Part shown: positions 1 through 59,571 of the stretch, one piece after another
Numbering within the stretch: the stretch's first letter is position 1
Layout of the letters: every line of letters begins with the position of its first letter
IMG/VR virus record: IMGVR_UViG_3300033076_001232
Location: 142,435-206,434 of that record
DNA: 64,000 bases
DNA from: a virus
Lineage: Duplodnaviria > Heunggongvirae > Uroviricota > Caudoviricetes
Reading direction: 5' to 3' (one strand)
Position numbers and translations under genes: made by a program
The notes under the pieces: generated by a model
Told to the model about the DNA's origin: nothing
The model's database searches: none
Seen by the model: the letters and a program-made list of their open reading frames with translations, nothing else

Positions 1-1
1 T

Positions 2-1111
2 AGATGGGATGATCTTCTGGTTTTATTTGGAACTCCATTGCAGGAGGATGCTTTCGGTTTAATTAAAACCGCACTAGAATCAGAAAATGGATTATGTGCA
101 AAGTGGATGCCTAGAAAAGGTCCAATTGCGAACGAGTTAAGAAAGTTTATGAACATGACTCCGAAGGAGTATAGAAAATTGCTTGTTTCTCTAACTAATG
201 TGGTTGAGCAAAACATGTGTTTAAATAAATGGGAAGACATTAATTATTCAAATGTTCCATCGGTCGCTGCTGCAAGATACCAAAATGCTTTCTATAGAAA
301 GGATCAGAAAAGATACGCTGAGTACATTCGTCTTTTAAGCATGCCTAGTGAAGAAAGACCAAATGAAATAAAAATCAATGCTCAAGCGGTTTATCCCTAT
401 GATGTTATTAAATCTCTAAACAGAGGTAATAAGGACGTTGCAACCGAACAATGGAAGGCTCTTCCTAATTATATGGAGGGAAATACTGAAATGATTCTAC
501 CTGTAGTTGATGTTTCAGGTTCTATGATGTCCTCAGTATCTGGTGGATCTTCCTTAACTTGTATGGACGTATCAGTGTCTTTAGGACTTTATATCTCGGA
601 AAGAAATAACGGGCCTTTCCAGGATCACTTTATAACATTTAGTGAGAGCCCTAGTCTACAGAAATTATCGGGTAATCTTTATGATAGATATTGTCAATTA
701 TCCGAATCCGATTGGGGAATGTCAACTAATCTAGAATCTGTATTCAATTTGATTCTAAAGCAAGCTACTAAACACAACATCTCTGAATCTGAAATGCCAT
801 CTAAAATATTGATTCTTTCCGATATGGAGTTCGATGAATGTATAATGGACGGTGAAAGTACATCTGCGATGGAGATGATCAGAAAGAAGTACTCTGATGC
901 TGGATATAAGCTTCCTTCGATTATATTCTGGAATATCCAGAGCAGAAGAGGTGGAAATAATATACCTGTTAGATTTGATGAGATGGGAACTGCTTTAGTT
1001 TCTGGATTTTCTCCTTCGATACTTAAATCAATATTAGCTGGTTCTGAAATAAGCCCGATGGAGATAATGAACCAGACGATAAATTCGGAAAGGTATCAAA
1101 AAGTATCATAA
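2..1111 (+). CDS. vWA-domain protein, 5'-truncated at window edge (MIDAS-like VVDVSGSM; possibly Ro60/TROVE-like or DUF2828-like)
   Basis: Reading frame open from nt 2 to stop at 1109-1111; no in-window start (track begins at TTG 38); DxSGS MIDAS-type motif. Confidence 0.6.
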   Translation, partial: RWDDLLVLFGTPLQEDAFGLIKTALESENGLCAKWMPRKGPIANELRKFMNMTPKEYRKLLVSLTNVVEQNMCLNKWEDINYSNVPSVAAARYQNAFYRKDQKRYAEYIRLLSMPSEERPNEIKINAQAVYPYDVIKSLNRGNKDVATEQWKALPNYMEGNTEMILPVVDVSGSMMSSVSGGSSLTCMDVSVSLGLYISERNNGPFQDHFITFSESPSLQKLSGNLYDRYCQLSESDWGMSTNLESVFNLILKQATKHNISESEMPSKILILSDMEFDECIMDGESTSAMEMIRKKYSDAGYKLPSIIFWNIQSRRGGNNIPVRFDEMGTALVSGFSPSILKSILAGSEISPMEIMNQTINSERYQKVS

Positions 1112-1153
1112 ATAATGAAACTTCTTCTGAATAGAAATATATAAATTAAAAAT

Positions 1154-1310
1154 AAGGAATCTTTTCAGCAAAAACAACTTACATTTAACTACGCAATAAG
1201 GATAGGACTCTTCGGAGCCTCCTATCAAAAAAAAGAGATTCCGCTATTATTAAAGGATTGTTACAGCAAATACAACTACAATTGAGATAACAGAAAAAAC
1301 AATCCTGATA
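1154..1310 (+). ncRNA. Candidate structured non-coding RNA / structured 3'UTR (two hairpins incl. UUCG-capped stem) upstream of terminator
   Basis: No ORF; ggaatcttt...aaagagattcc outer stem enclosing gataggac-ttcg-gcctcctatc hairpin; second 9-bp stem aggattgtt/aacaatcct. Confidence 0.2.
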
Positions 1311-1317
1311 CTATTAA

Positions 1318-1348
1318 AGTCCGAGTGAAAGCTCGGACTTTTTTTTTC
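1318..1348 (+). terminator. Rho-independent terminator
   Basis: 8-bp stem agtccgag/ctcggact, loop tgaaag, followed by T9 run. Confidence 0.8.
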
Positions 1349-1399
1349 TTCCGGGATTATTTTTTATCTTTGTTTCATAAACCAATAAAAATCGAGATT

Positions 1400-1747
1400 A
1401 TGTTAACAAATGGAAAATTAGCAAACGAAGGATCGAATCTGGATAAACTCATTTCTAGATTTAGAAAACCAATTCTCCTAGCGGGACGTATCTTACTTGT
1501 TATTATAGCTCTTTCCTCAGGATATGCTATATCGGAGATTCAACATCGATACAAGGAATCCCTGGTAGAGGAGGAATCCCCTATGGTAACTAGACCAGCT
1601 GCTGAAATCTCAGTGGCCATCAACGAAAGAAACGAGTTGATGCTCATAGATCGTAGAAATGGAAAATATGAGATTTACCAAGATTCTACTGGAATGCAGA
1701 TCTTTAATCTTTACGCAAATAAGCTCTATAAGGACAATAATCAATAA
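1400..1747 (+). CDS. Small membrane protein (hypothetical)
   Basis: First ATG after terminator in ORF 1325-1747; one predicted TM helix (ILLAGRILLVIIALSSGYAI). Confidence 0.5.
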   Translation: MLTNGKLANEGSNLDKLISRFRKPILLAGRILLVIIALSSGYAISEIQHRYKESLVEEESPMVTRPAAEISVAINERNELMLIDRRNGKYEIYQDSTGMQIFNLYANKLYKDNNQ

Positions 1748-1750
1748 GCC

Positions 1751-2263
1751 ATGAAGAATACGATGTACATGATCATTATCGGAGTTTTAATGGCTCCTAT
1801 AGCTTTCCTTTTAATCAGTAGTTCAACTGCTAAGGAAGAAACCGTTATGCTTGCTTCTGGTAGTTCAGCTTCTATGAATTTGCCTCCATGTATCGAAATG
1901 CACAACTGCATAGAAAAGTACAGTAAAAAGTACGACATTCCAAAAAGATATGCCTATGGAGTGGCTTTCAAAGAAACCAGATATCAAGGTGCATTTCATT
2001 GGAACTATAACCCAAAACAGACCAGTTGTGTTGGAGCTGTAGGACCGATGCAAATAATGTATCCAACCGCACAGATGATGTGGAAAGACCGGGAATTTAC
2101 CAAGGTGGATCTTAAGGACAATATAGATTTTAATGTTGAGACCAGCATGAAATTACTTAGACATCTCTATGATAGGTATAAAGACTGGAAGATCGTATTT
2201 GGGTGTTATAACACTGGACGTCCGATGGTTAATCAATATGCAATCGACGTGTATAATTTTTAA
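1751..2263 (+). CDS. Lytic transglycosylase (SLT-domain) with N-terminal signal/TM anchor
   Basis: E-T/S catalytic motif (FKETRYQ) and GAVGPMQI (GLMQ-like) SLT signature; hydrophobic N-terminus. Confidence 0.65.
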   Translation: MKNTMYMIIIGVLMAPIAFLLISSSTAKEETVMLASGSSASMNLPPCIEMHNCIEKYSKKYDIPKRYAYGVAFKETRYQGAFHWNYNPKQTSCVGAVGPMQIMYPTAQMMWKDREFTKVDLKDNIDFNVETSMKLLRHLYDRYKDWKIVFGCYNTGRPMVNQYAIDVYNF

Positions 2264-2285
2264 TCCAATTCGGAATAATTTAAAA

Positions 2286-2316
2286 ATGCTCGGCTATAAA
2301 GGTCGAGCATTTTTTT
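2286..2316 (+). terminator. Rho-independent terminator
   Basis: 7-bp stem atgctcg/cgagcat with T-run 2311-2316. Confidence 0.6.
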
Positions 2317-2321
2317 ATGTA

Positions 2322-3242
2322 ATGAGAGCTGTTTATGTTGACTGGCACCTTCCCAGAAAAATGAAGGGTATAGTTTTACCGGTAAAGAAGCACTGGGAAG
2401 TTGCGATGATCATCAGAACAACATTCTTTTCCAGAGAGATAAATGGATTCTCGCCTGTTTTATATTGCGATCAGGAAACATATGATTATTATGAAAGTCT
2501 GGATCTCGTAAAGCACTTCGATGACGTATATCCTATCTTACCTAATGATGAGACAGAGGTAAATTTCGATCCTACTGTTTTCTGGGCAGCTGCTAAGTTT
2601 TTAGCAATACAGAAATGCAACGAGCCATTTATTATGATTGACCTCGATGCAGAAATAAGATTCAAGATTAATCCCGAAGAATATGATGCCTTTTTTGCCC
2701 ATTATGAGCTGGTACTAGATGATGACATTAATTACTATCCGCCACCTCAATACTTAGATCAATCCGATTATCTAGGAAAAAAGTACAATATCGATTGGAG
2801 TGATCTAGCTATGAATACGTCGATCATCTATTTTAAGGATCTCGATTTAGCAAAAGAGTTTGCAGATTCTGCCCTTGATTTTATGGAGAATGTCGATTCG
2901 ATTAATTTAAATTTCGATCCGGTTTCGTACATACTCTTGGTTGAACAGAGATTAGCTTATGAACTGTGTAAGATCAAAGAATCTAATATTGGAACTCTAA
3001 TCTCTGGAATCTACATACCAAGGGAAGCTAGGGATGGAATGGAACCAGAATTTGTCGATTCTGATGTTGATGAGATATCACAAAAGGGCTTTCTTCATAT
3101 TTGGGGATATAAAAAGGCACTAAATGCCAGTCCTGAATTGGAACAGCAGCTTTTAGGAGATCTTATCTCATCGAGAATAAATTTAAAAGATGATATCGTA
3201 GGTTCGATTTCTAAAAATTTCGAACTCTATATGAATAGATAA
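2322..3242 (+). CDS. Hypothetical protein (start set after terminator; in-frame upstream ATG at 2286 and track start 2169 are alternatives)
   Basis: Long ORF, coding-like composition; no recognisable domain. Confidence 0.5.
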   Translation: MRAVYVDWHLPRKMKGIVLPVKKHWEVAMIIRTTFFSREINGFSPVLYCDQETYDYYESLDLVKHFDDVYPILPNDETEVNFDPTVFWAAAKFLAIQKCNEPFIMIDLDAEIRFKINPEEYDAFFAHYELVLDDDINYYPPPQYLDQSDYLGKKYNIDWSDLAMNTSIIYFKDLDLAKEFADSALDFMENVDSINLNFDPVSYILLVEQRLAYELCKIKESNIGTLISGIYIPREARDGMEPEFVDSDVDEISQKGFLHIWGYKKALNASPELEQQLLGDLISSRINLKDDIVGSISKNFELYMNR

Positions 3243-3245
3243 TAG

Positions 3246-3422
3246 ATGAATGAGGGTAAAAGAATAGAAGGTGAATTCTATAACTATCTTAATGATTTTG
3301 CTAAGACTAACGGGATTAGGGTTACCGAGGTTATTAAGATGGATAAATTGGTAGAGGATCTTCGTAATCTTTATCTCTCTAAAAAAGGAAAGGAAAAAGA
3401 TCAGGAAAAAGATCCTGAGTAA
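3246..3422 (+). CDS. Small hypothetical protein (58 aa)
   Basis: Short ORF filling gap between 3242 and tmRNA; below ORF-track cutoff. Confidence 0.3.
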   Translation: MNEGKRIEGEFYNYLNDFAKTNGIRVTEVIKMDKLVEDLRNLYLSKKGKEKDQEKDPE

Positions 3423-3428
3423 TTATAT

Positions 3429-3917
3429 GGGCCCGCTTTGGATTTGACAGGCGGAGGTAGTTCTTTGAGATGCAGGCAGTCTTAGATTGGAAAGACTTTA
3501 ATTACCTATCAAACAATAAACGCAAACGTTTACAATTCTGAGGATATCATGAGTATCCCAACTTCACTTACTCGCTCTGTAGTAGCTGAAGAGGTTGAGC
3601 TAGCTGTTGCAGCCTAACCAATTGGCGGCAACTGCCAATTATAAAAGAAAGTTGCAAGCTGGCAAGAAAAAAGGTTCGTAGTATTGCCTATTTGACATTG
3701 AGTGGAACCTTGAGGATTAGTTCAATACCCATTAAGATCGTCACTATCAATGTCAGTGAAACTTGGTTAGTACCGGGGAGTAAACCAGACCGAGCATTAA
3801 GTCTGAAAGAAAAAAGAAACGCACCAAAAGTTTGTTGATGTCGAAAAATCAACTAAGCCTGTGAATGAGTCCAATGGACATTCGATCTGGACGAGGGTTC
3901 GACTCCCTCCGGGTCCA
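3429..3917 (+). ncRNA. ssrA: tmRNA (transfer-messenger RNA, SsrA)
   Basis: 5' acceptor gggcccg pairs with 3' cgggtcc giving G3:U70; 5' ggatttgacagg matches conserved GGAUUCGACGGG; T-arm gaggg-ttcgact-ccctc; internal tag ORF ending gct gtt gca gcc taa (..LAVAA*) with uagua-GCU resume context; helix after stop codon. Confidence 0.85.
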
Positions 3918-3968
3918 CTTTTTTGAAACATTTTAGATAAATACTAATATAAAAATTAAATTATTATT

Positions 3969-4340
3969 ATGACACTTACTATTACCGCTGTTTTATTAAT
4001 TGCATTAGTTCTAGGATTTTGGTACTTTTACTCAAAGGGAGCTAACAGCAATATGAAGGGATCGATCGATGTTGATCTGGATGTAAATTTGGATATCCCT
4101 TCAGAAGAAGGAGAAGCTGATGCTTCAACCACCGTATCTGTTGGATTCAATGGATCTGTTAACCAGGAGGAAGTAACTGAATCCCCAGAACCTGTTGTTG
4201 AAGAGGAACCAGTTGTAGAAGAAAAAGCACCAGAGGTTAAAAAAGCTAAGGCTGAGAAAAAGAATCAGCCAAAAAAACCAGGAGCTAAACGAGGCAGAAA
4301 ACCTAAAAAAGATAAAGGAAACGATCTACTACTAAGCTAA
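3969..4340 (+). CDS. Small membrane-anchored protein with acidic middle and lysine-rich AT-hook-like tail (KRGRKPKK)
   Basis: N-terminal TM helix; low-complexity E/V-rich and K-rich C-terminus. Confidence 0.5.
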   Translation: MTLTITAVLLIALVLGFWYFYSKGANSNMKGSIDVDLDVNLDIPSEEGEADASTTVSVGFNGSVNQEEVTESPEPVVEEEPVVEEKAPEVKKAKAEKKNQPKKPGAKRGRKPKKDKGNDLLLS

Positions 4341-4347
4341 TAAAAAA

Positions 4348-4369
4348 ATCCCTCTCAGAGGGATTTTTT
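4348..4369 (+). terminator. Rho-independent terminator
   Basis: stem atccctc/gagggat followed by T6. Confidence 0.65.
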
Positions 4370-4435
4370 ATGAGATAAATTTTTTAATCCCGCGACCAAA
4401 ATTTACATTTAGGTCAAATTACTAAAAATAACACT

Positions 4436-4927
4436 ATGCTTTTAAGAACAATTAAAAATTACGCCCTACTCCGAATTTACAAGACCTCTAGGTTTTTCAA
4501 GACTGGAAAATTCAAATCCGTAAAGAGAAGCAAAAAAGAAAGGACTCTTCAGAAGATAATCAAGGGGGTTTTAAATGATCCAAAAAGCCGAGTTTATTAC
4601 TCACCGGAAAGCTACCGAATATTCACTCACAACCAGGATAAGACATACATCATCTCGTTTGATGATCGTGAGATTAGAATCACGAATCACCGTTTCTTTT
4701 CCAGCTTCCAAGTAAATCCAGATTTTGCCCGCTCCATAATAAGAGAAGCATTTGCTCGGATAGAAAGAGATATGCAGGCATTAGAAAGCGAATCTGTTTG
4801 TAACGAGGATTTCTTCCTGAATGAGGTTTATGATAAATTTAGTTCCTCTGGAACTAATGAAGAGATGCCGACGAAGGAAACCGAGAAATACTTCGAGGAT
4901 ATTCTAAATGAGAGCACTCTGTCATAG
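4436..4927 (+). CDS. Hypothetical protein
   Basis: ORF with coding-like composition; abuts mgsA-like gene. Confidence 0.5.
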   Translation: MLLRTIKNYALLRIYKTSRFFKTGKFKSVKRSKKERTLQKIIKGVLNDPKSRVYYSPESYRIFTHNQDKTYIISFDDREIRITNHRFFSSFQVNPDFARSIIREAFARIERDMQALESESVCNEDFFLNEVYDKFSSSGTNEEMPTKETEKYFEDILNESTLS

Positions 4928-4929
4928 TT

Positions 4930-5295
4930 ATGAGAATAGCAGTAATTGCCCATGACAATAAAAAAGCTGACCTTGTAGCTTTTATTCTTAAAAGATTAGA
5001 TTTTTTTAAAGAGCATGAAATCGTAGCTACTGGAACTACAGGAAAACACATCGAGCATGCCGGCATAGAAGTGAACAAGAAGCTATCTGGTCCTAAGGGT
5101 GGAGATGCACAAATAGCAGCAGAGCTTGTAGATGGTAAAATAGATGGTGTTTTATTTTTCATAGATCCTCTAACATCGCATCCTCACGAGGTTGACGTTC
5201 AGATGCTTTTAAGATTATGTAATGTTTGGAACATTCCAATTGCTACAAATTATTCCACAGCAAAACTTTTAGTTGAAGCGATAACAAAAAAATAA
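4930..5295 (+). CDS. mgsA: Methylglyoxal synthase
   Basis: AHDNKK, ATGTTG, SGPKGGD, DPLTSHPHEVDV, LLRLCNVWNIPIATN align with MgsA catalytic/phosphate-binding motifs. Confidence 0.8.
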   Translation: MRIAVIAHDNKKADLVAFILKRLDFFKEHEIVATGTTGKHIEHAGIEVNKKLSGPKGGDAQIAAELVDGKIDGVLFFIDPLTSHPHEVDVQMLLRLCNVWNIPIATNYSTAKLLVEAITKK

Positions 5296-5302
5296 ATATT
5301 CG

Positions 5303-6055
5303 ATGATAGTATGTTTTATATCGGATACTCACTGTCAGCATTCAAGTAGAAAATTAGAATTTTATCTGGACAGAATTCTGGAGAAATATCCAGATTCTAC
5401 TATAGTCCACTGTGGCGATATTTCAAGTCGGGGTAGATTTACAGAAATAGAAGATTTTCTTTCGTGGTATTCAGACCTAGGGTTTAAAAATAAAATAATG
5501 ATCTCAGGTAATCACGATTTCTTCTTCGATTATGATCGTACACCAATAACTGATATGGGTAGATCTAGACACGGAAATCCGATGTATTCGAAGGAAGATG
5601 TTTACGATTTACTTTCAAAATATCCACAGATAATTTATTTGAATGATTCGGGTATCACCTTGGATGGAATAAACTTTTGGGGTAGCCCAGTAACCCCGTG
5701 GTTCCATGACTGGGCTTTTAATAGGACTGAGGAAACGATAATAGATCATTGGAAAATGATTCCTGATAATACGAACATCCTGATAACTCATGGTCCTCCA
5801 AGAGGTATATTAGATCTTACCTACAATGGATACACCAATGTAGGTTGTATAGAACTAGCTGGAAAAACTTTTGATTTAAAAGAACTTATGGTCCATGCTT
5901 TCGGACATATTCACGAGGCATTTGGTATTGAGACTGTCGATGAGGTAACCTATATAAATGCTTCGTTTCTGAATTTCAACTATCAGCCTTTAAATTCACC
6001 GATAATATTTGACACTGAGAGTAAAAAATCTTATATTTTTTCGATTCAGGATTGA
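5303..6055 (+). CDS. Calcineurin-like metallophosphoesterase
   Basis: GD (CGDISS), GNHD, THGPP, GHIHE metallophosphatase motifs in order. Confidence 0.7.
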   Translation: MIVCFISDTHCQHSSRKLEFYLDRILEKYPDSTIVHCGDISSRGRFTEIEDFLSWYSDLGFKNKIMISGNHDFFFDYDRTPITDMGRSRHGNPMYSKEDVYDLLSKYPQIIYLNDSGITLDGINFWGSPVTPWFHDWAFNRTEETIIDHWKMIPDNTNILITHGPPRGILDLTYNGYTNVGCIELAGKTFDLKELMVHAFGHIHEAFGIETVDEVTYINASFLNFNYQPLNSPIIFDTESKKSYIFSIQD

Positions 6056-6100
6056 AATTTTATCGGACATGTTTCATAGAAAGATAAAAGAAAATTATTA

Positions 6101-6877
6101 ATGAGAACATTCCAATACCCTTCCGATGCTATAAAATGGACTAAGGAAAGGTTATCAGATCACGGTTACGTTGTTAAAACAGAGAAATGGCAGGGCATAG
6201 AAGCTCCTGATGACATGTATGAAATAATGAACCATTCTTTTCAAATGGTTATACCGAAATCTATGGAAGAACTTGTTGATGAGGTAAAACCAAATTTACC
6301 TTGGGCTAATGAGCATTTCTTAGAAAGGGTTGGTGGACTTCCGCTCAATCCCCCGCCATCTCATGTTAACTGGCCATTCGCTCAGAAGAATAACGAGCAG
6401 TTTGGTGGCAATGATAGATTTTCCCACACATATCCGGAGAGAATTTGGCCTAAATACGCTTCCGAAGTTCCAAATTCTTCTATGGAAGGTATTAGATTTT
6501 CCTATGGTGATTTTGGTGATGTGCTGGATCTATTAGAGAAGGAGCCTTTTACGAGACAGGCATTCCTCCCGATCTGGTTTCCCGAAGATACCGGGGTAAC
6601 TCACGGAGAAAGAGTACCCTGCACCATTGGTTATCATTTTATGAGAAGAGGTAATTTTTTCCATATCTCCTACTTTATTAGATCTTGTGATTATATAAGA
6701 CACTTTAGAGATGACATATACCTAGCCATCAGAAAGCTAATGTGGATTCTGGATGAGCTTAAAAAAAGAGATCCGGAGAGATGGGGTGATGTTGTTCCGG
6801 GTTATTTTGCAATGCACATAGTTTCGCTTCATTGCTTTAACCGTGAGAAAGGACTTTTAAAACTAAGTAATAAGTAA
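6101..6877 (+). CDS. Divergent thymidylate-synthase-family protein (dCMP/dUMP hydroxymethylase-like)
   Basis: FTRQAFLPIW (cf. DSRRIIxxAWN), catalytic-Cys context VPCTIGYHF, RSCDYIRHFRDDIY (cf. ThyA RSCD / T4 gp42 RSNDVVFGFRNDY) with ThyA-like spacing. Confidence 0.55.
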   Translation: MRTFQYPSDAIKWTKERLSDHGYVVKTEKWQGIEAPDDMYEIMNHSFQMVIPKSMEELVDEVKPNLPWANEHFLERVGGLPLNPPPSHVNWPFAQKNNEQFGGNDRFSHTYPERIWPKYASEVPNSSMEGIRFSYGDFGDVLDLLEKEPFTRQAFLPIWFPEDTGVTHGERVPCTIGYHFMRRGNFFHISYFIRSCDYIRHFRDDIYLAIRKLMWILDELKKRDPERWGDVVPGYFAMHIVSLHCFNREKGLLKLSNK

Positions 6878-6878
6878 T

Positions 6879-7028
6879 ATGGAAAATGAGTTTGTAAAGG
6901 ACGTACTAGATTTAGCTAATCGATATCCAAATGATTCTGAATTGGGAAAAAATGTAAGAATGCTAATCCGAAAATATAAGGAACATTCAGATACTAACAA
7001 AAAAAAGGAGGGTAGTCTCCAGAAATAA
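6879..7028 (+). CDS. Small hypothetical protein (49 aa)
   Basis: ORF exactly filling gap between stops/starts of flanking genes. Confidence 0.3.
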   Translation: MENEFVKDVLDLANRYPNDSELGKNVRMLIRKYKEHSDTNKKKEGSLQK

Positions 7029-7030
7029 TT

Positions 7031-7309
7031 ATGGATCCAAAAGCTAGTTACTTCAAGGAGATCAGAAAACCAACTGACAGTATGATGGTTTTCTACGAGA
7101 AAATGTTTAAAAGAAACCAATCCAAATTTATCAGAAGATCCAGTCTCGAGGTTTCTCATTTGGGATCTGAATTCGATTATGATGATAAAAGGATGAAACT
7201 TTTGGGAGCAATAGATTCTACCCTAATGATATCGGAGGATCTAAATGACGGTAAATGTTATATAGTCCACGGCGACACCGTTACCAATTTAATATTAAAA
7301 AATAATTAA
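7031..7309 (+). CDS. Hypothetical protein
   Basis: ORF track; tight packing. Confidence 0.45.
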   Translation: MDPKASYFKEIRKPTDSMMVFYEKMFKRNQSKFIRRSSLEVSHLGSEFDYDDKRMKLLGAIDSTLMISEDLNDGKCYIVHGDTVTNLILKNN

Positions 7310-7314
7310 TTGCT

Positions 7315-7536
7315 TTGTTAGATTTCTACGTTAAGACATATAGCCCCGAAGTACACATACAAATATGTGAGCTAATATCTTTAACTCTGACCAAGATATT
7401 AGAGGACAAAATGGGTGAAGAATCTGACGATTTTTATGGGATTTTTCTTTTGCGTAGTAGCGACGAAGTTTACGAGCTTTTCTCTGAATTTAGAGAGATA
7501 ACCTTGGAAATGCCTAAGGGGAAAGTTATCAGATAA
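7315..7536 (+). CDS. Hypothetical small protein (TTG start; first in-frame ATG near 7411)
   Basis: ORF track; start uncertain. Confidence 0.3.
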   Translation: MLDFYVKTYSPEVHIQICELISLTLTKILEDKMGEESDDFYGIFLLRSSDEVYELFSEFREITLEMPKGKVIR

Positions 7537-7614
7537 CTCCTTTATCTGATTTCTCGTTGATATATAGTTTGTACTTATGTCTATTTGTAATTGGGCAATA
7601 AAACAAATTGATAT

Positions 7615-7998
7615 ATGGACGAGAATAACATAAACCAAACATTCTTGATGAAGCAAATACTGGATGAGCTAGCTAAGCTTAAATCCAATATGCCTAACGG
7701 TGAACTGAAACACCTCCAGGATAGCATAGAGGATTTAAGGAAGGACCAAAAAGTGCTCAAGGATGACATCTCAGATATCAAAAGAAAATTGCTAGACCCC
7801 GAAACTGGTGTTATAGTTAGGGTTAATGAAAATACAAAATTTAGATTACAGGAGGAAGACCGATATGAAGATTATCTGGAATTCAATGCTGATCTCCGAA
7901 GTCTAAAGAAATGGCAGGGAGGAATAAACAAAGCAATGTGGATAATTTTCACTGCCATTGCAGCCATCGCACTCAAAGTTATTTTTGGAGTGGGGTAG
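7615..7998 (+). CDS. Coiled-coil protein with C-terminal TM helix
   Basis: Heptad-like charged sequence then MWIIFTAIAAIALKVIFGV. Confidence 0.5.
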   Translation: MDENNINQTFLMKQILDELAKLKSNMPNGELKHLQDSIEDLRKDQKVLKDDISDIKRKLLDPETGVIVRVNENTKFRLQEEDRYEDYLEFNADLRSLKKWQGGINKAMWIIFTAIAAIALKVIFGVG

Positions 7999-8021
7999 GC
8001 CACCAAAAAAAATATTGGACC

Positions 8022-8318
8022 ATGGAATCGGGAAGTTTCAAAGAATTCATGGATATGCAGGACAACGAAGGTCCATTTCTGGGGGATTTAATTTACCCGA
8101 AGGTAAAGGAAGCTATCCTAGAAAATTTCGAAGAGGCAAATCTCTTCACTCTAATTCCCACTGACAATGAGGAATATCCAGATGGCATTGTTTTTAGCCT
8201 AGATCGAAATCAATTTTCTATATTTCTTGAGCACTACCTAAAAATGTGTGAAGAGAACGAGCTCTACGAGAGATGTTTAGAAATACTTGATCTCCAGGAA
8301 CTTATTACAGAATGCTAA
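8022..8318 (+). CDS. Small acidic protein, UVR-like C-terminal motif (paralog 1 of 3)
   Basis: Internal ATG after upstream gene; C-terminal ELYERCLEILDL motif. Confidence 0.45.
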   Translation: MESGSFKEFMDMQDNEGPFLGDLIYPKVKEAILENFEEANLFTLIPTDNEEYPDGIVFSLDRNQFSIFLEHYLKMCEENELYERCLEILDLQELITEC

Positions 8319-8505
8319 TGTCATGAATGGGGACGAAAAGAAAATATACGACCGTGCACTCATAAAATATTCTATGATTGTAAGATGCGGTGGAAATTCC
8401 ATAGAGGAAATTAAAGAATGTATCGAGATCTTCGAAGAATTTGAAGATTATGAAAAATGTGCAGATTTACTCGAAATTTTAAAAGCCTATGAGTCTAAAA
8501 AATGA
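8287..8505 (+). CDS. Small acidic protein, UVR-like C-terminal motif (paralog 2; alternative start 8323)
   Basis: FEEFEDYEKCADLLEIL motif. Confidence 0.45.
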   Translation: MISRNLLQNANVMNGDEKKIYDRALIKYSMIVRCGGNSIEEIKECIEIFEEFEDYEKCADLLEILKAYESKK

Positions 8506-8526
8506 GTAGAGAAGAAAGTAAAAATA

Positions 8527-8760
8527 GTGAAGACGATAAATAGGCAAGTTTTTGAGAATGCTTTAAAAAGCATGGAGATATATGGTCTGGATGGAATGAA
8601 ATCCCCTAGAATATTATCTAAAAGAAATCTCATTAGAGAATCACTAATTAAATATTATGAATCCACTGAGGAATTTGAAAAATGCAAATTCATAGTAGGA
8701 TTTTTCGAGGATTTGGAAAAAAATATTTCCGAGACAAAATCCACCAGGAAAAAGCAATAA
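8527..8760 (+). CDS. Small acidic protein, UVR-like motif (paralog 3)
   Basis: TEEFEKCKFIVGFFEDL motif. Confidence 0.45.
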   Translation: MKTINRQVFENALKSMEIYGLDGMKSPRILSKRNLIRESLIKYYESTEEFEKCKFIVGFFEDLEKNISETKSTRKKQ

Positions 8761-8840
8761 TAGGTTCCACGATTTTGGTGTTTTTGAAACCTTTAGTTAC
8801 ATATAAGGTATAATTAACATCAAAAACAAACAAATAATTA

Positions 8841-10415
8841 ATGAAGTTTTCAGAATTATCTCCGGATCAAATTTATGAGATTTCCAGAATATACTGGGAT
8901 CGAAAAATGGGATGGGATGACAGAATGGAAGCTCTCAGTGAATACCTAGGTAAATCAGAAAGAACCGTCCAGAAATGGATATCCAAGTTAGGTATTACCG
9001 AGAAATCTATTCAGGAATCTCCACAGCTAATTAGAGCTAAAGAAAAGAAATTTAATAAAAGAAAAAAGAGATTCATTGTTACATGGGCTCAGAACGATAC
9101 TCCAGTTCACGAGAACTTCATCTGTAACATTGAGGCATATGCGAATCATATCAATGCAGATATTCACGTTATAGCAGGAAGGTACAAGAATCCAACCTCA
9201 GTGTTTACAGACAAGAAATATGAGCAATGGTCAGATCGGATTATAAAGTACTTGGATGCTAACCGTCACGAAATCCACAAGTATATGTGGATAATGTCAG
9301 ACGTAAAAATCCAACCGACGGCAGTTGATCCTATGACAGGATTACAGGGAATGACCGGTATTAATTCCTGTATTTTTGGATCCCCCAAAGTTCAGTTGGA
9401 AACAATCCCAGTACTGGAGGGGAATTTACCGAAAATAATGATGACCACTGGAGCCTGTACGGTCAAGAACTATACAGATTCTAAATCTGGTAAAAAGGGA
9501 GAATTCCATCACACATTAGGTTTTGTCGTAGTAGAAATAAAAGACGATGAAACCTTTTTTGCTAGACAGGTGACCGCAAATGATTCTGGTGATTTTACTG
9601 ATCTTTATTACAAAGTTGAGTATGATCCTGACGAGGATCAAAGTAAAGTAGATAAGATCAACAGAATATCTGCAGCTATCTTAGGAGACGTTCACTATGG
9701 ACAGCATGACGAGGAGGTTTTAAATAAAACCCTAGAGATGTTTAAAAACATCAATCCAGATTATGTTGTTTTACATGATGTTTTCGATGGATTATCTATA
9801 AACCACCACGAGTCCAACGATCCATTTGTTCAATACAAGAGAGAGATGGAGGGAACAAACTCCCTTAGAAATGAGATCGATGCGATGTTAAATGGATTGG
9901 AGGTATTCAAGGATTATAAAACTGTAATAGTTAGAAGTAATCACGATGATTTCTTGGATCGATGGTTAAAGAATACTGATTGGAGAAAAGCTACCACCAT
10001 GAAGAACTCTATTGAATATATGGAGTTCAGTACCCTGCTATTAAAAGGAGAAGCACCGAAAGGGATTATACCTTATCTCATTAATCAGAAATTTCCAGAA
10101 TTTGTTACGCTAGGACGCAGTGATAGCTTTGTAGTTAGAGATTGGGAACTTGGACAACATGGAGATATTGGGTCCAATGGTGCAAGAGGATCTCTGTTAC
10201 AATTTAGAAAGCTTAATAGAAAATTGGTTGTTGGTCATTATCATTCACCGGGTAGGAAAGATGGAGCTTTGGCAGTTGGAACATCAACTAAACTTAGAGT
10301 TAATTATAACCTAGGACCAAGCGGTTGGCTACATTCTCACGTTATTATACATGATGATGGAAAAGCTCAGCATATCAATTTTATAAAAGGTGACTTCACA
10401 ACACTAAAACCATAA
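8841..10415 (+). CDS. HTH-containing protein fused to calcineurin-like metallophosphoesterase domain
   Basis: N-terminal SERTVQKWISKLGI HTH-like; C-terminal GDVHYG, VLHDVFDG, SNHD, GHYH motifs. Confidence 0.55.
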   Translation: MKFSELSPDQIYEISRIYWDRKMGWDDRMEALSEYLGKSERTVQKWISKLGITEKSIQESPQLIRAKEKKFNKRKKRFIVTWAQNDTPVHENFICNIEAYANHINADIHVIAGRYKNPTSVFTDKKYEQWSDRIIKYLDANRHEIHKYMWIMSDVKIQPTAVDPMTGLQGMTGINSCIFGSPKVQLETIPVLEGNLPKIMMTTGACTVKNYTDSKSGKKGEFHHTLGFVVVEIKDDETFFARQVTANDSGDFTDLYYKVEYDPDEDQSKVDKINRISAAILGDVHYGQHDEEVLNKTLEMFKNINPDYVVLHDVFDGLSINHHESNDPFVQYKREMEGTNSLRNEIDAMLNGLEVFKDYKTVIVRSNHDDFLDRWLKNTDWRKATTMKNSIEYMEFSTLLLKGEAPKGIIPYLINQKFPEFVTLGRSDSFVVRDWELGQHGDIGSNGARGSLLQFRKLNRKLVVGHYHSPGRKDGALAVGTSTKLRVNYNLGPSGWLHSHVIIHDDGKAQHINFIKGDFTTLKP

Positions 10416-21425: not shown

Positions 21426-22391
21426 ATGGCAGAAATACTAAATCTGGTAAATCCGAAAGATAGCTTATCCTTTAAATATGAGATAAGCAGGTTCCCTGAC
21501 GGCCAGCAATCATTAAGACTGATTGAGGATGGTTACAACACATTCAATTCACTAAAGAATGCGGCGATCAAAATAAAGTCAAGACTAAACAATTTCCAGG
21601 ATTTGGAAATTATCATTTGCGCAACACAAGCTCTTAGGGAGGTTGGAGTGAATGATATCAGTCTTTACATTCCTTATTGTGTTGGTGCTAGAAGCGACCG
21701 AAAATTTTCAGAGGGTGGAATCAATTATGTTAAGACGGTGATTGCACCTATTATCAATTCACAGGGCTACTCGAGTGTCACAATACTTGATCCACATTCT
21801 GATGTGCTTGAGGCTTGCATTAACAATTTCAAAAAGATAAACAATTTCAATTTAGTCAATTTTTCTTTGAAAGAAATCCTACTTGAAGATTGGAGAAAAA
21901 CTTCGGACGATATTGGTTTCGAAGGGTGGTACAAATACGACTGGCTAAAGAACCCGGACATTGTCCTAGTTTCACCCGATGCAGGTGCTTATAAGAAAAT
22001 TTTTGATGTTGCAGAAAATTTCAGAATTAAGAGCATAGCAACAGCGGTCAAAGTTCGAGATTTGGAAACTGGAAAGATCCTGAGAACGGAGGTTCCAAAT
22101 TTACCCATTAGCACAACAGGAAAAGAATTTAGGTATGTAATTATCGATGACATTTGTGATGGCGGTAGAACATTCATTGAATTGGCAAAAGCGATCAAAG
22201 CTAGTCGCCCAACTGCTGAGATCTATTTAGTGGTCACTCATGGAATCTTCAGTGCTGGGTATGCTGAATTAGGAAAATATTTTAATGGAATCTATTGTAC
22301 AAACTCGGTAAAGGACATCGTACACGATCCAGAAGACACCGACCTCGAAAGAGAAATGAAGGAAAAAGTAAAACAATTAAACGTATTCTAA
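21426..22391 (+). CDS. Ribose-phosphate pyrophosphokinase-family protein (Prs-like; possibly ADPR-pyrophosphate synthase type)
   Basis: FPDGQ, IPYCVGARSDRK (cf. IPYFGYARQDRR), ILDPHS, VSPDAGA, VIIDDICDGGRTF PRPP-binding loop. Confidence 0.7.
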   Translation: MAEILNLVNPKDSLSFKYEISRFPDGQQSLRLIEDGYNTFNSLKNAAIKIKSRLNNFQDLEIIICATQALREVGVNDISLYIPYCVGARSDRKFSEGGINYVKTVIAPIINSQGYSSVTILDPHSDVLEACINNFKKINNFNLVNFSLKEILLEDWRKTSDDIGFEGWYKYDWLKNPDIVLVSPDAGAYKKIFDVAENFRIKSIATAVKVRDLETGKILRTEVPNLPISTTGKEFRYVIIDDICDGGRTFIELAKAIKASRPTAEIYLVVTHGIFSAGYAELGKYFNGIYCTNSVKDIVHDPEDTDLEREMKEKVKQLNVF

Positions 22392-26508: not shown

Positions 26509-27180
26509 ATGAAAAATATACACTTATTACCAACAGAAAATTATAAACAAGATTACACTTTACAAAGTGGAGAAGTTGTAGAAGTCGTTAGATTAGGTCA
26601 GTTAATAAAAAATAGTGAAACTAATGAATTATTAATAAATAAAAATTCACATTGGGCAGCTTCATGTGATACTGACGTTCTGGTTCCTCATCATATTTAT
26701 ATTACTTCGGATGAACAAATTAAAGATAGAGATTGGTACATTTATATAAAAGATGGTTTATTAATACAATATAAAAAAGAATTTAATCCGTCTGCCGCAA
26801 GTGCTTCATACAATAAAAAAATTATTCTAACAACAGACCAAGACTTAATTAAAGATGGTGTACAACCTATTGATGATGAGTTTTTGGAATGGTTTGTTAA
26901 AAATCCAAGTTGTGAAAAGGCTGAGATTGAAAATGGCTGGGGTTTAGAAGTCGACATTCAAACTCCTTATTACAAAATAATTGTCCCAAAAGAAGAACAA
27001 TTACCAACAAAGTGGTTCAATACAGAAGAAATTGAAACATGGATTGGTAATTCAGATGAAGGTGGTAGAGGTAAGTTGATTGTACTTCATCAGTGTGGTG
27101 AAAATAAAGAAGAACTTATCAGTCAGTTAACTACAATGATTGATGGTTTAAAAAATGGATTTGAATACTTCGCACAATAA
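26509..27180 (+). CDS. Hypothetical protein
   Basis: ORF track. Confidence 0.5.
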   Translation: MKNIHLLPTENYKQDYTLQSGEVVEVVRLGQLIKNSETNELLINKNSHWAASCDTDVLVPHHIYITSDEQIKDRDWYIYIKDGLLIQYKKEFNPSAASASYNKKIILTTDQDLIKDGVQPIDDEFLEWFVKNPSCEKAEIENGWGLEVDIQTPYYKIIVPKEEQLPTKWFNTEEIETWIGNSDEGGRGKLIVLHQCGENKEELISQLTTMIDGLKNGFEYFAQ

Positions 27181-29448: not shown

Positions 29449-31020
29449 ATGAAAGGAATAAACCCAGCCCTTCTAACCGACGGTTATAAAACAGGGCACC
29501 ATCAGCAATACCCGGAGGGAACAACTCTAGTGTATTCTAACTTTACCCCAAGAAGTAACAAGTATGCACCTAAGGGATGCGATCATGTTGTTTCTTTTGG
29601 TCAGCAACTTATCATGAAGCAGATTCACGAGAGCTTCCAAAAAGATTTCTTCGATCAGCCTAAAGATGAGGTGTGCTCGGAAATTAAGAGAGAGCTTTCT
29701 CTTTATCTAGGAGTCGATTACGATGTTAGTCACTTCGAAGCCCTTCACGATCTTGGATATTTACCTATTAAGGTTAAAGCAATCAAAGAGGGAACTTTAG
29801 TGCCAATCAAGGTTCCTGTCTTGACTATCTATAATACGGATCCCAACTTTTACTGGGTAACCAACTATTTGGAAACACTAATCTCAAATCTTCTTTGGAA
29901 GCCAATGACTTCCGCAACAATTGCTTACCAATACAAGAGAGTTCTTACCGATTGGGCTCTTAAAACCGACAAGGAAAACAAAACATTTGTTCAGTGGCAA
30001 GGTCACGATTTCTCTATGAGAGGTATGGATTCAGTGGATGCTGTAATTTCTTCCGGTCTTGGACACCTAACATCTTTTACTGGAACAGATTCCCTTCCTG
30101 CAATTTACGGAGCTCGTAAGTATTACGGAGCGGAAGGATTTGTCGCAGCGTCAGTGCCAGCAACAGAACACTCGGTAATGTGTGCTGGCGGGAAAGAGGA
30201 TGAGATTGAGACATTCCGAAGACTGATTAAGACTTACCCTGCTGGTATCTTGTCAGTAGTATCTGATACTTGGGATTTGTGGAAAGTGTGTACGGAGCAT
30301 GTGGTTACTTTGAAAGAAGAGATTTTGGCTCGTGATGGTAAGTTGGTTATTCGTCCTGATAGTGGTGACCCGGTTGATATCCTTTGCGGTACAGAAGATT
30401 ATACAAAATCTAAATTACCTTATGATGAGGTTAAAGATGTAGAAGTTATGCACCCTAGCCAAAAAGGTGTAATTGAACTTCTTTGGGATGTATTTGGAGG
30501 AACTGTTAACGAACAAGGTTACAAAGTACTTGATCCACATATCGGAGCAATCTATGGCGATAGCATTACTATCGATCGTGCTGAGCAAATCTGCAGCAGA
30601 TTAGCTTCAAAGGGATTTGCATCAACAAACGTAGTGCTTGGGGTAGGATCTTTCACTTACCAGTACAACACCCGCGATACATTTGGTTTTGCAATGAAGG
30701 CAACTTATGTTGAGGTTAAGGTTCCTAAATATGGTGATTTTGCGGACCAAGGGTTGAATACCGAAATTGAAGGTAGAGAAATCTTCAAAGATCCAATCAC
30801 CGATGATGGAACGAAGAAATCTGCAACTGGCTTACTAAGCGTAGTTAGCCGTCCAGGTGAAGGTTTAACCCTAGTTGATAAGTGCGACTGGAAACATGAA
30901 AATGTCGGAGCATTGGAAACAATCTACCACGACGGAAAATCTAGCTCCGAGATCACTCTTTCTGAAATTAGAAACAATCTTGAATTTTCTTTGATTAAAG
31001 AGAGAGAAATTATTTTTTAA
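29449..31020 (+). CDS. Nicotinamide phosphoribosyltransferase-family protein (NAMPT/NadV-like; possibly Namat-type)
   Basis: VPATEHSVM, SFTGTDS, IRPDSGDPV motifs conserved with NAMPT. Confidence 0.7.
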   Translation: MKGINPALLTDGYKTGHHQQYPEGTTLVYSNFTPRSNKYAPKGCDHVVSFGQQLIMKQIHESFQKDFFDQPKDEVCSEIKRELSLYLGVDYDVSHFEALHDLGYLPIKVKAIKEGTLVPIKVPVLTIYNTDPNFYWVTNYLETLISNLLWKPMTSATIAYQYKRVLTDWALKTDKENKTFVQWQGHDFSMRGMDSVDAVISSGLGHLTSFTGTDSLPAIYGARKYYGAEGFVAASVPATEHSVMCAGGKEDEIETFRRLIKTYPAGILSVVSDTWDLWKVCTEHVVTLKEEILARDGKLVIRPDSGDPVDILCGTEDYTKSKLPYDEVKDVEVMHPSQKGVIELLWDVFGGTVNEQGYKVLDPHIGAIYGDSITIDRAEQICSRLASKGFASTNVVLGVGSFTYQYNTRDTFGFAMKATYVEVKVPKYGDFADQGLNTEIEGREIFKDPITDDGTKKSATGLLSVVSRPGEGLTLVDKCDWKHENVGALETIYHDGKSSSEITLSEIRNNLEFSLIKEREIIF

Positions 31021-37383: not shown

Positions 37384-37932
37384 ATGGAAACAAAAATTGA
37401 TCCTAGAGAGATTGAAAAAATCGAAAAATTAACAGGGGGTAAAATCGGAACTCATACCTTTGGTCCAAACCAAGAACACACTTTGGAGAATTCCTTTCTA
37501 TCTCAGGATGGAACATATATTGGAGACTTCGAAAGAGCTCAATGGTACGTTGAACAAAAATTGATGGTCGACGAGGAATACCCACATGGAGTTGCTGCCG
37601 TTATTAAGGACGAAACCTACGGAACAGAAATTCCGGAAATAGAAGGCATGTATGGTTACACTCACAGAGGGGGTCAAATGTTTAAAATCGGTGATCGATT
37701 ATTTGACGAAAGTTACAAACCACAGAAGGAGGACTATCCCGAGGATGAATGGTCGAAGTATGAGGAGAGCTTTAAAAAATCTTACGATGAGGCAGACGAC
37801 CTAAATAAAAAATGGATGGATAACGACGGAATCTCTTATGTTATCCCATTTAAAATGAGAGGGAGAAAGAATATCGAAACTATGAGGGAGGCTTTCGAAG
37901 CAGCTAGAAACATGTCAAAGTATTTAAGTTAA
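37384..37932 (+). CDS. Hypothetical protein
   Basis: ORF track. Confidence 0.45.
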   Translation: METKIDPREIEKIEKLTGGKIGTHTFGPNQEHTLENSFLSQDGTYIGDFERAQWYVEQKLMVDEEYPHGVAAVIKDETYGTEIPEIEGMYGYTHRGGQMFKIGDRLFDESYKPQKEDYPEDEWSKYEESFKKSYDEADDLNKKWMDNDGISYVIPFKMRGRKNIETMREAFEAARNMSKYLS

Positions 37933-45180: not shown

Positions 45181-45669
45181 ATGCCAGTAATGATAAAGGA
45201 TTCACGTTTCTATAATAACGGATCATCAAATAGAGCCTTTGGAACTTCCGGAATGGCTGGAATACCAGGAATTCCCGGGGTTTCTGGATTTGTCTCAATC
45301 ACGGAAGGTCTCCCAGTTTCATATGAAGAAATTCCCAGAACTGCCAAATTAGAAAGCAGATTTGTAGATTTGTACGACGATTACGATTTCTCACTATATT
45401 CCGCCGAATTAAAGAATCAATCCAGTATAATTGATGTGGTAAGCAGGGTGTCTTCTGAAGTAAGCGATTCAAATCCAGTAGGGAGCAAAGGAAATGTCGG
45501 AAAGGTAAAAAATGAAGTTGTCGGTATTAACACACAGATCTCTAAGAAATCTAAAAATCTTAAAGGAAGTAGTATTAAGAAAGAAAAAAATCAAATTTTA
45601 AAAACTGTTCTGCAGAACTTTTTCCCAGTAAGCGCATTTACTTCTATTTACGAAAAAATTAGAAGATGA
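45181..45669 (+). CDS. Hypothetical protein
   Basis: ORF track. Confidence 0.45.
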   Translation: MPVMIKDSRFYNNGSSNRAFGTSGMAGIPGIPGVSGFVSITEGLPVSYEEIPRTAKLESRFVDLYDDYDFSLYSAELKNQSSIIDVVSRVSSEVSDSNPVGSKGNVGKVKNEVVGINTQISKKSKNLKGSSIKKEKNQILKTVLQNFFPVSAFTSIYEKIRR

Positions 45670-49445: not shown

Positions 49446-49447
49446 TT

Positions 49448-50083: not shown

Positions 50084-50301
50084 GAGCGGAAGAAGCAAGA
50101 AAAATAGCGGAACAATTCACACCAGATGTAAAGGAAGTTCTTGAAATAGTAAAGAAAGAAGCAACGAATGGTGGATTATCCACTTCAGGAGCCTCAAGGT
50201 TTCTTTTTAACGAGAGGGTAAGAAAATATCTCGAAAAATTAGGTTACCGGATAAAATTTGTGGAGGCTCAGAGAGACGGATACTGGGAAATTAGCTGGTA
50301 A
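50080..50301 (+). CDS. Small hypothetical protein
   Basis: ATGA overlap. Confidence 0.4.
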   Translation: MRAEEARKIAEQFTPDVKEVLEIVKKEATNGGLSTSGASRFLFNERVRKYLEKLGYRIKFVEAQRDGYWEISW

Positions 50302-50302
50302 G

Positions 50303-54106: not shown

Positions 54107-54155
54107 AATTTATTTATTTTTTTTCCTGCTAGGGTTTTTCAAACCCCCGTTTTAT

Positions 54156-55060: not shown

Positions 55061-55065
55061 GTCTA

Positions 55066-58427: not shown

Positions 58428-58428
58428 T

Positions 58429-59151: not shown

Positions 59152-59152
59152 C

Positions 59153-59551: not shown

Positions 59552-59571
59552 TTTATTTTAATTTATTTTGT

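Follow-up and report, generated by a model that had tools for sequence, protein, structure and literature searches.

A complete one-piece tmRNA gene with a predicted 31-residue tag in the DNA of a large, probably jumbo, phage

Does the stretch of Caudoviricetes DNA analysed here (64,000 nucleotides (nt) of IMG/VR record IMGVR_UViG_3300033076_001232, positions 142,435 to 206,434, called the window and numbered from its first letter) carry a transfer-messenger RNA (tmRNA, ssrA) gene that belongs to the phage, and if so, what tag does this RNA encode? An initial annotation, made from the letters alone, had placed a complete tmRNA gene of about 489 nt between positions 3429 and 3917, with translation resuming at the GCT codon at 3585 and a tag AEEVELAVAA. 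As to the gene, this was right: window 3429-3917 is a complete one-piece tmRNA gene, its mature length is 489 nt, and the coordinates given for its body were exact. As to the tag, comparison with relatives points to a different resume codon, GCA 3522, and to a predicted tag of 31 residues.

ARAGORN, run over the 64-kb window, called a single tRNA-like gene, a tmRNA at 3429-3918 on the plus strand. The Rfam tmRNA model RF00023 matched 3429-3920 with 87.3 bits (gathering threshold 47, E value 1.7e-32). This match was untruncated, spanning model positions 1-374 of 374, and was the only one within the 64 kb to reach an Rfam gathering threshold; a permissive Rfam scan of positions 1-9000 yielded nothing further that was credible. 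The initial annotation had suggested ARAGORN and the covariance model as a check, and the two agree. An identical tmRNA sequence is found in the Logan contig L122. The parts of the gene that make up its tRNA-like domain and ends are as follows.

3429-3917, plus strand: the whole gene, a one-piece tmRNA of 489 nt when counted as far as the discriminator A, without an encoded CCA (ARAGORN and RF00023)
3429-3435, plus strand: 5' strand of the acceptor stem P1, GGGCCCG, whose G3 belongs to the alanine identity pair G3:U70 (from the sequence)
3440-3451, plus strand: D-loop-like element GGAUUUGACAGG, matched to GGaUUCGACggg of the Rfam consensus at high posterior probability
3893-3909, plus strand: T arm GAGGG-UUCGACU-CCCUC, with a loop of the UUCGANY type (from the sequence)
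3910-3917, plus strand: 3' strand of the acceptor stem, CGGGUCC (3910-3916), and discriminator A (3917) (from the sequence)
3919-3924, plus strand: run of six T after C 3918, a terminator-like 3' end (call at 3895-3916 plus tail)

Other kinds of RNA were considered for the locus and rejected. A two-piece (circularly permuted) tmRNA (RF04321) is ruled out, the gene being colinear and RF00023 alone matching in the window. An RNA consisting of the tRNA-like domain (TLD) only, as in mycobacteriophage DS6A, is ruled out by the full mRNA-like domain and the conserved 31-codon frame. As for a group I intron as the source of the extra length, no intron family matched, either at the gathering threshold or at E<=1. 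Since the extra ~130 nt are made up of helices that covary in the class of ~490-nt relatives, we regard the gene as a structured tmRNA and not as one enlarged by an intron or another inserted element.

The relatives were gathered by exact-pattern scans of IMG/VR with segments of the 3' end, the 5' end, the connector helix P2 and the tag core (a first 16-mer pattern, GGTTCGTAGTATTGCC, gave mostly chance matches and was abandoned). Counting as family members the sequences that were called by ARAGORN and had the core motif, we arrived at 56 or more unique members in full length, which measure 361-502 nt; the tmRNA of the window falls in the longest class (488-502 nt). A scan of metagenomes with the tag-core pattern found at least 120 loci. 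Close relatives lie on IMG/VR viral contigs of 42-290 kb, a tmRNA 97% identical to that of the window being on the 290-kb contig, and contigs of the wider clade reach 434 kb.

In the at least 56 unique relatives the acceptor stem occurs in 11 real 7-bp variants, all of which keep G3:U70; in the window 3429-3435 pairs with 3910-3916, so that the ends do form the 7-bp stem with the alanine identity pair read by the initial annotation. The T arm, also as first read, has 17 variants in the same relatives (stems of about 10 different sequences), 16 of these variants having all 5 bp paired. The D-loop-like region is the SmpB-binding region of known tmRNAs. The conserved 5' element claimed for it is borne out by the Rfam alignment, and the D-loop-like GGNUUCGAC element, with no anticodon arm, is present as GGAUUUGAC at 3440-3448. 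At the other end ACUU follows the acceptor stem (3917-3920), hence CCA is absent from the gene; this and the terminal T-run had likewise been read correctly. One family member (L064, 107-597, minus strand) has an apparent G3-C70 pair, and its T arm, GTGGGTTTAACTTCGGACCC, looks degenerate; this copy may be decaying, or may reflect an assembly error.

That the internal reading frame ends in LAVAA and a stop codon is confirmed; the question is where it starts. The open stretch of 31 codons upstream to GCA 3522 had been mentioned in the initial annotation as an aside, and the comparative data make it the tag frame.

3515-3524, plus strand: predicted resume site, AAUAAAC followed by GCA (3522-3524), 11 nt 3' of pseudoknot 1 (PK1)
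3522-3617, plus strand: tag frame, 31 codons encoding ANVYNSEDIMSIPTSLTRSVVAEEVELAVAA, followed by UAA (stop at 3615-3617) (translation)

The Rfam consensus resume codon aligns to GCA 3522. Among 24 unique relatives on viral contigs, U at -5, A at -4 and A at -3 relative to this codon are invariant (upstream motif UAAA(C/U)), the filter used in the search for the resume site having permitted more than what was observed at -5 to -3. The resume codon itself is GCA in 14, GGC in 6, GAC in 3 and GGA in one. The frame has no stop in any of the 24 open reading frames (ORFs), while each of the two shifted frames has stops in all 24 (100 and 57 in total). The ratio of nonsynonymous to synonymous polymorphism (pN/pS), calculated for these relatives outside the collection pattern, is 0.51 in the tag frame versus 0.95 and 1.23 in the shifted frames. 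As the tags have 28-35 codons, every insertion or deletion is a multiple of three; examples are the 3-nt insertion in L048 and the 15-nt insertion in L319. Codons vary in synonymous series (TAC/TAT, AAT/AAC, CCA/CCG/CCC/CCT, TCA/TCT, ACT/ACA, CGC/CGT/AGA). In-frame stops just upstream in L026, L048, L054 and L059 confine the start to the proposed site, give or take a few codons. Metagenomes added, among the matches listed, about 65 more unique in-frame tags of 28-39 residues, the exact tag of the window included. Translation of the tag frame is thus supported by an evolutionary signature. The resume point of tmRNAs is set by positions -6 to +1, which are read by SmpB (PMC3985003), and GCA 3522, 11 nt after PK1 and preceded by invariant bases, fits this rule.

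A real phage tmRNA with a short tag would need translation to resume at GCT 3585 (AEEVELAVAA) or at GAA 3588 (EEVELAVAA), the 21 upstream codons then being an untranslated spacer, open by chance. EEVELAVAA, resuming at GAA 3588, is what ARAGORN reports for the window, and it also gives EEVELAVAA for L003, L010, L026, L027 and L048; the UAGUA before GCT 3585 resembles the UAGUC of E. coli, and a length of 9-10 residues agrees with the modal tag length of 10 (PMC11915505). However, the codon at the 3585 site is not conserved: depending on the relative it is GCT, GCA, ACT (in L010), AAA, GTT, GTA, TTT, AAC or CCT, and the bases upstream vary as well, thus neither GCT 3585 nor UAGUA as its signal can be upheld. 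These sites lie 74-77 nt after PK1, compared with ~11 nt for GCA 3522, and the 21 codons which would be a spacer look translated by each of the measures given above (no stops, pN/pS of 0.51, synonymous changes, in-frame indels only). In L049, L051, L053, L054, L057, L059, L065, L066, L069 and L070, moreover, it is the long tag that ARAGORN calls. Because the relatives keep the 3522 frame and not the 3585 codon, we consider a short tag unlikely and take GCA 3522 as the predicted resume codon and ANVYNSEDIMSIPTSLTRSVVAEEVELAVAA, with 31 residues instead of 9-10, as the predicted tag.

The tag begins with a conserved N-terminal module, xNxYNxEDxMSIPTS(L/I)T, continues with a variable linker and an acidic patch and has a hydrophobic end, ...L(A/L)(V/L)AA. 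Two further features in or near the frame were examined and dropped: an internal start (a Shine-Dalgarno-like GAGGA with AUG within the tag frame), which the sister groups do not have, and a small hairpin at the resume codon (UAAACG/CGUUUA), which is not kept in the relatives.

The constraint on the tag also bears on whether the RNA could be a decoy or a decaying copy, which would bind SmpB or alanyl-tRNA synthetase (AlaRS) and block trans-translation of the host, in the manner of the DS6A RNA mentioned above. Inhibition of the host tmRNA has been reported for a phage tmRNA consisting of the TLD only (PMC4131195), and the failure to find a phage SmpB (see below) would agree with such a role. 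A decoy, however, has no need of a tag frame, and here the frame is under purifying selection over dozens of variants, and the RNA has a complete mRNA-like domain together with PK1 and the resume site. This makes the decoy very unlikely in our view.

The secondary structure outside the tRNA-like domain is that of a tmRNA in which the region after the stop codon is enlarged.

3448-3477, plus strand: 5' strand of the P2 connector helix, segments CAGG, GGA, GUUC and GCAGGC
3478-3510, plus strand: PK1, stem 1 AGUCUU (3478-3483) / AAGACU (3492-3497), stem 2 GAU.GG (3485-3490) / CC.AUC (3505-3510)
3542-3558, plus strand: hairpin inside the tag frame, GGAUAU-CAUGA-GUAUCC, 6 bp, over the codons E-D-I-M-S-I (minimum free energy (MFE) and centroid folds)
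3620-3655, plus strand: PK2, post-stop hairpin AAUUGGC (3620-3626) / GCCAAUU (3634-3640), whose stem covaries, and second pairing of the loop GCAAC (3628-3632) with GUUGC (3651-3655)
3661-3711, plus strand: PK3-like pseudoknot, GGCAA (3661-3665) / UUGCC (3684-3688) and AAGGUUC (3671-3677) / GAACCUU (3705-3711)
3714-3853, plus strand: further structured region, hairpins at 3714-3723, 3762-3777, 3786-3805 and 3834-3853
3857-3889, plus strand: 3' strand of the P2 connector helix, GCCUGU ... GGAC ... UUC ... UCUG

The Rfam alignment was poor 3' of the tag frame (low posterior probabilities, a 149-nt insertion), therefore the structure was worked out from the relatives instead. A full secondary structure of the window RNA was written by hand and scored on an alignment of 15 sequences of the ~490-nt class (alignment A3). 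Standard pairs were found in 93.9% of the cells, versus 26-50% when the 3' partners were slid by 1-3 columns, a comparison in which the model is favoured by having been derived from one of the aligned sequences. Pairs changed on both sides numbered 19 in the model and 1-11 in the slid versions, and the covariation score, 0.165 versus 0.081 in column shuffles, was reached by none of 500 shuffles. Some of the unpaired cells in P1 and in stem 2 of PK2 are register errors of MAFFT. Automatic folding was less useful: with MAFFT and RNAalifold on composite 5' plus 3' sequences the variable D-loop region came out misaligned, neither P1 nor P2 being recovered, and MFE folds of single sequences were inconsistent, thus helices were tabulated from anchors and the structure was built by hand.

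The P2 segments are paired in 97-99% of the cells of A3, and terminal P2, GCAGGC/GCCUGU in the window, becomes GCAAGC/GCUUGU and GCAUGC/GCAUGU in relatives. PK1 has seven fully paired variants of stem 1 among the relatives and a nearly invariant stem 2. The helix that the initial annotation had noticed after the stop codon was found, as the covarying hairpin 3620-3640, and it is at the same time the first stem of PK2; the loop pairing of PK2 is fully compensatory in relatives of the L003 type, where both sides are swapped to GGAUC/GAUCC. The PK3-like pseudoknot has 93-96% of its cells paired with few double changes, and compensatory changes are seen in the helices 3762-3777, 3786-3805 and 3834-3853. 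The region downstream of the tag thus contains PK2, the PK3-like pseudoknot and three covarying hairpins, possible counterparts of PK3 and PK4 of E. coli being among them.

The hairpin inside the tag frame (3542-3558) is invariant in A3. Sister groups of viral tmRNAs, whose tags include ANVELSTMTFEDAMSFVGVDLAVAA, GNTSTFTYEDALAFVGADFAVAA and AEVSNFTYEDAIAFVSSEYAVAA, have in common an E-D-x-hydrophobic-S/A-hydrophobic motif, which is written with different codons (serine is AGU in one group and UCU in another), and a hairpin occurs at the matching place of the sister tag frames in L084, L089, L076, L116 and L088 (z from -1.1 to -2.8). It is possible that the peptide, the RNA hairpin or both of them are under constraint.

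Does the gene belong to the phage? In the window the genes are tightly packed, on the plus strand to ~53.3 kb and mostly on the minus strand from there to ~62.7 kb, with a GC content of 0.31-0.41, mostly 0.35-0.39. An alternative is that the tmRNA is a host chromosomal ssrA next to an integrated prophage or island: integration often occurs at tmRNA genes, and fragments of ssrA can be found in prophages (PMC11915505, PMC9004378). The locus does not look like such a junction. The ORFs on both flanks are co-oriented with the tmRNA, closely packed and of uniform GC content, with phage hallmarks; no second copy of the tmRNA 3' end, which an attachment-type (att) duplication would leave, was found in the 64 kb with up to 3 mismatches, and there was no integrase among the Pfam-scanned ORFs of the window. 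The locus, with the gene-free gap at the position of the tmRNA, is present in four independent Logan assemblies in the same gene order. The relatives recur on viral contigs in varied phage contexts, some of them within phage tRNA arrays, and a 17-mer of the family found no bacterial family member in 185,579 species-representative genomes. A host ssrA is therefore extremely unlikely, and the earlier placement of the gene among phage genes and not at an island junction holds. There are no tRNA genes in the 64-kb window. Nor is there a gene that always accompanies the tmRNA in the family: the largest cluster of neighbours is found in 13 of 69 loci, mostly close relatives.

Taken together, we consider it highly probable that the locus is a functional one-piece tmRNA gene in an early or accessory gene block of a large, probably jumbo, phage. 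The tmRNA would be transcribed along with the plus-strand gene array, its 5' end cut as that of a tRNA and its 3' end trimmed, and, as CCA is not encoded, the host CCA-adding enzyme would be required to complete it. Host AlaRS would charge it with alanine by way of G3:U70, and host SmpB and EF-Tu would bring it to ribosomes that have stalled, during infection, on mRNAs which are broken or lack a stop codon. Translation would resume at GCA 3522 and add the 31-residue tag, and the ribosome would be released at UAA 3615, leaving a product with a hydrophobic ...LAVAA end like the usual protease degron. The phage may benefit in that translation capacity is sustained while host and phage RNAs are cut. 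Expression, charging, dependence on host SmpB, proteolysis of the tagged products and the benefit to the phage are steps that we infer from sequence. Reasons proposed earlier for phages to carry tmRNA are translation during takeover, amino-acid recycling and sensing of the host state (PMC7162821, PMC9004378).

Several observations weigh against this interpretation. No SmpB was found in the window or in related loci by phmmer and tblastn, a search that covered parts of the genomes and used E. coli and B. subtilis SmpB sequences as queries; given these limits, dependence on host SmpB is assumed. The window gene does not encode CCA although two close relatives do (L251, 147-638, and L262, 1509-2000, 98% and 95.5% identical to the window tmRNA); in the family CCA is encoded by 15 of the 56 unique members, about a quarter. 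Much of the family was collected with the tag-core pattern GAGGATATNATGAGTATCC, and the invariance of the 19-mer core is partly by construction, for which reason the frame tests excluded the core; the 19-mer is also invariant in members found by patterns outside the tag. Among bacterial tmRNAs, the 17-mer of the family is shared by cyanobacterial ones only, with a similarity confined to the 3' ~70 nt. Finally, the assignment of the host, discussed below, rests on indirect evidence.

It is instructive to compare the window tmRNA with known systems. It resembles the bacterial one-piece tmRNA (SsrA, RF00023; 10Sa RNA of E. coli) in its acceptor stem with G3:U70, T arm, D-loop-like element and P2, in a PK1 about 11 nt upstream of a resume codon starting with G, in U and A at -5 and -4, in a tag end that is hydrophobic and followed by AA, in the structured region after the stop and in the full-length covariance-model match. 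It differs from E. coli-type SsrA in being phage-encoded and 489 nt long versus ~360, and from bacterial SsrA in its tag of 31 residues versus the modal 10 (PMC11915505), with a conserved internal module and a hairpin inside the frame, in the post-stop hairpin being itself the first stem of PK2, and in lacking an encoded CCA.

The novelty implied by the initial annotation was overstated. Lists of phage tmRNAs go back to 2014 or earlier and name the Bxz1-group mycobacteriophages and Bacillus phage G (PMC4131195); tmRNAs have been reported in huge phages (PMC7162821), a survey counted them in 402 of 18,146 phage genomes (2.3%; PMC9004378), and the Methylophilales phage Melnitz has a two-piece one (PMC9004378). 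The window gene is thus of a known kind: like the earlier examples it is a complete ssrA in a large, lytic-type genome, with other translation or RNA-metabolism genes alongside and a function that is presumed. Unlike them, it has no detectable nucleotide similarity past ~40 nt of the tRNA-like domain. Its tag is far longer than the 13-residue tag ANSNVASAYALAA of the tmRNAs annotated in deposited Streptomyces phages, it is in one piece whereas the Melnitz tmRNA is permuted, and some huge phages carry SmpB while none was seen for the phage of the window.

What seems to be new is the family, which is missing from the deposited phage collection (by blastn), is common in metagenomes and has tags three times the modal 10 residues. 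With blastn and megablast, the tmRNA and 20 kb of the window found no family member in 50,697 deposited phage records, the matches being limited to ~40 nt of the tRNA-like domain of other phage tmRNAs (E up to 10). The metagenome contigs carry names that include a hypolimnion sample of Trout Bog Lake and one marine assembly. A search of the literature, the tmRNA database itself being outside it, found no paper that describes the long tags of the family, and we regard a long conserved tag family as a modest novelty.

For the length of the tag there is a precedent. The extended tag of Mycoplasma and Mesoplasma has about 27 residues. It is recognised by Lon (work by Gur and Sauer in 2008 and by Ge and Karzai in 2009, both cited in PMC3985003), and by that account its conserved extra length goes with a switch of protease and a multipartite recognition. 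This would be the closest functional analogy to the long tag, which is also unusually long and conserved in its extra part. There is no sequence similarity, however, and the window tag ends in ...LAVAA, like ClpXP-type tags, whereas the Mycoplasma and Mesoplasma tags end in AFA.

Some observations concern more distant RNAs. A 17-mer from P2 marks a wider viral tmRNA clade with other tags (L074, L077, L079, L084, L089, L105, L078, L082 and others), for example ANVDYSTEYYAVAA (14 residues) and ANVELSTMTFEDAMSFVGVDLAVAA (25 residues); in a group of this clade reading GKTNVWDTINQFGAPVAQVEFAVAA, ARAGORN gives the last 8 residues only, or nothing. An unrelated IMG/VR contig (L002, 4623-4908) shares an exact 29-nt tmRNA 3' end with the window and carries a permuted, two-piece tmRNA (RF04321, 56.8 bits) within an array of 16 tRNA genes. 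In the Cellulophaga phages phi38:1 and phi40:1 (KC821614.1 and KC821612.1, ~26804-26837) a 34-nt match of 91% to the window tmRNA, over its T arm and the 3' strand of its acceptor stem, lies in a stretch without annotated feature; it could be a tRNA-like or att-type fragment. The 17-mer TAAGCCTGTGAATGAGT occurs in the tmRNAs of filamentous cyanobacteria (Leptolyngbya, Nodosilinea, Phormidium; tag ANNIVPFARKAAPVAA; among L126-L205), and the similarity to the phage family, limited to the last ~70 nt, may reflect ancestry or convergence. Matches of the 17-mer in metagenome-assembled genomes of Bacteroidota were chance matches, without a tmRNA at the match.

The neighbouring genes give some indication of the phage and its host.

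38-1111, plus strand: Ro60-related protein (DUF2828/DUF7788), C-terminal 357 residues (476 residues in L122), 2.3 kb 5' of the tmRNA
3246-3422, plus strand: ORF of 58 residues, its stop 6 nt 5' of the tmRNA start (ORF list)
21426-22391, plus strand: PRPP-synthase-like protein
29449-31020, plus strand: NAMPT
37384-37932, plus strand: Tad6-like protein (Thoeris inhibitor; 52 bits)
45666-46091, plus strand: cytidylyltransferase-like protein (possible NMNAT)
47159-48115, plus strand: AAA ATPase, just 5' of the Thg1-like gene
48576-50848, plus strand: Thg1-like protein (tRNA-His guanylyltransferase family, 95.8 bits), then two HAD_SAK_2 ORFs
53498-62727, minus strand: block with a LamG/C-type-lectin protein, a 561-residue protein rich in Ser, Gly, Asn and Gln, a cohesin protein with a Por_Secre_tail domain of the type IX secretion system (T9SS), and a PG_binding plus GH19 lysozyme

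The 58-residue ORF is also called in L122-L124 and adjoins the tmRNA in 10 related loci; its spacing suggests co-transcription followed by 5' processing of the RNase P type. Many large phages, among them KVP40, Cronobacter S13 and mycobacteriophages, have homologues of the Ro60-related protein; near the gene the permissive Rfam scan detected no RNA, Y-RNA-like or otherwise. The Thg1-like and HAD_SAK_2 ('Swiss Army Knife RNA repair') genes look like a module for the repair of tRNA or RNA 5' ends. The PRPP-synthase-like, NAMPT and NMNAT-like genes resemble an NAD+ reconstitution set, which together with the Tad6-like gene makes them candidate counter-defence genes. RNase HII, an IMPDH/GMP-reductase domain, ThyA and glycosyltransferases are also encoded in the window.

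The host is most likely a member of the Bacteroidota, the main clue being the T9SS Por_Secre_tail domain, to which the matches to phages of Flavobacteriia are added: the T5 A1-like DNA transfer protein has its best matches, of 43-45% identity, in Maribacter, Cellulophaga and Flavobacterium phages. An identical A1-like protein is found also on contigs of 0.2-1 Mb, which, with the 290-kb contig of the relative, makes the source probably a jumbo phage.

The nearby RNA-repair and counter-defence genes are circumstantial evidence that fits the maintenance of translation as the role of the tmRNA. Going one step further, the 20 or so extra residues of the tag, with the module xNxYNxEDxMSIPTS(L/I)T, might serve as a phage-specific address by which this freshwater family re-routes the products of stalled ribosomes; we put this forward tentatively, as an idea that may well prove wrong. 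Such an address may be a site for an adaptor, a different protease or a phage factor, and the overlapping hairpin may add a layer of control. One use of such re-routing may be to cope with RNA-cleaving defences of the host, alongside the Ro-like, Thg1-like and RNA-repair genes nearby.

The locus is a well-supported further case of a phage carrying its own ribosome-rescue RNA. The family it belongs to is large and so far uncultured, with 56 or more unique variants in full length and, in metagenomes, at least 120 matches, about 65 unique family tag frames being among those listed. Automatic annotation misreads the tag of this family: ARAGORN reports 9 residues in the window, and in some close relatives the long form. 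As corrected, the 31-residue tag, its conserved N-terminal module and the hairpin within the frame are concrete targets for experiments, and tag peptides such as ANVYNSEDIMSIPTSLTR, SVVAEEVELAVAA and the C-terminal ...SIPTSLTRSVVAEEVELAVAA can be searched for in metaproteomes. The tag raises the question of which protease or adaptor reads the module. Judging by the genes around the tmRNA (Ro60-related, Thg1-like with RNA-repair HAD domains, NAD+ salvage, Tad6-like), the phage seems to put effort into repairing RNA and countering host defences, and this makes a role of its tmRNA in translation under RNA-targeting host immunity testable.

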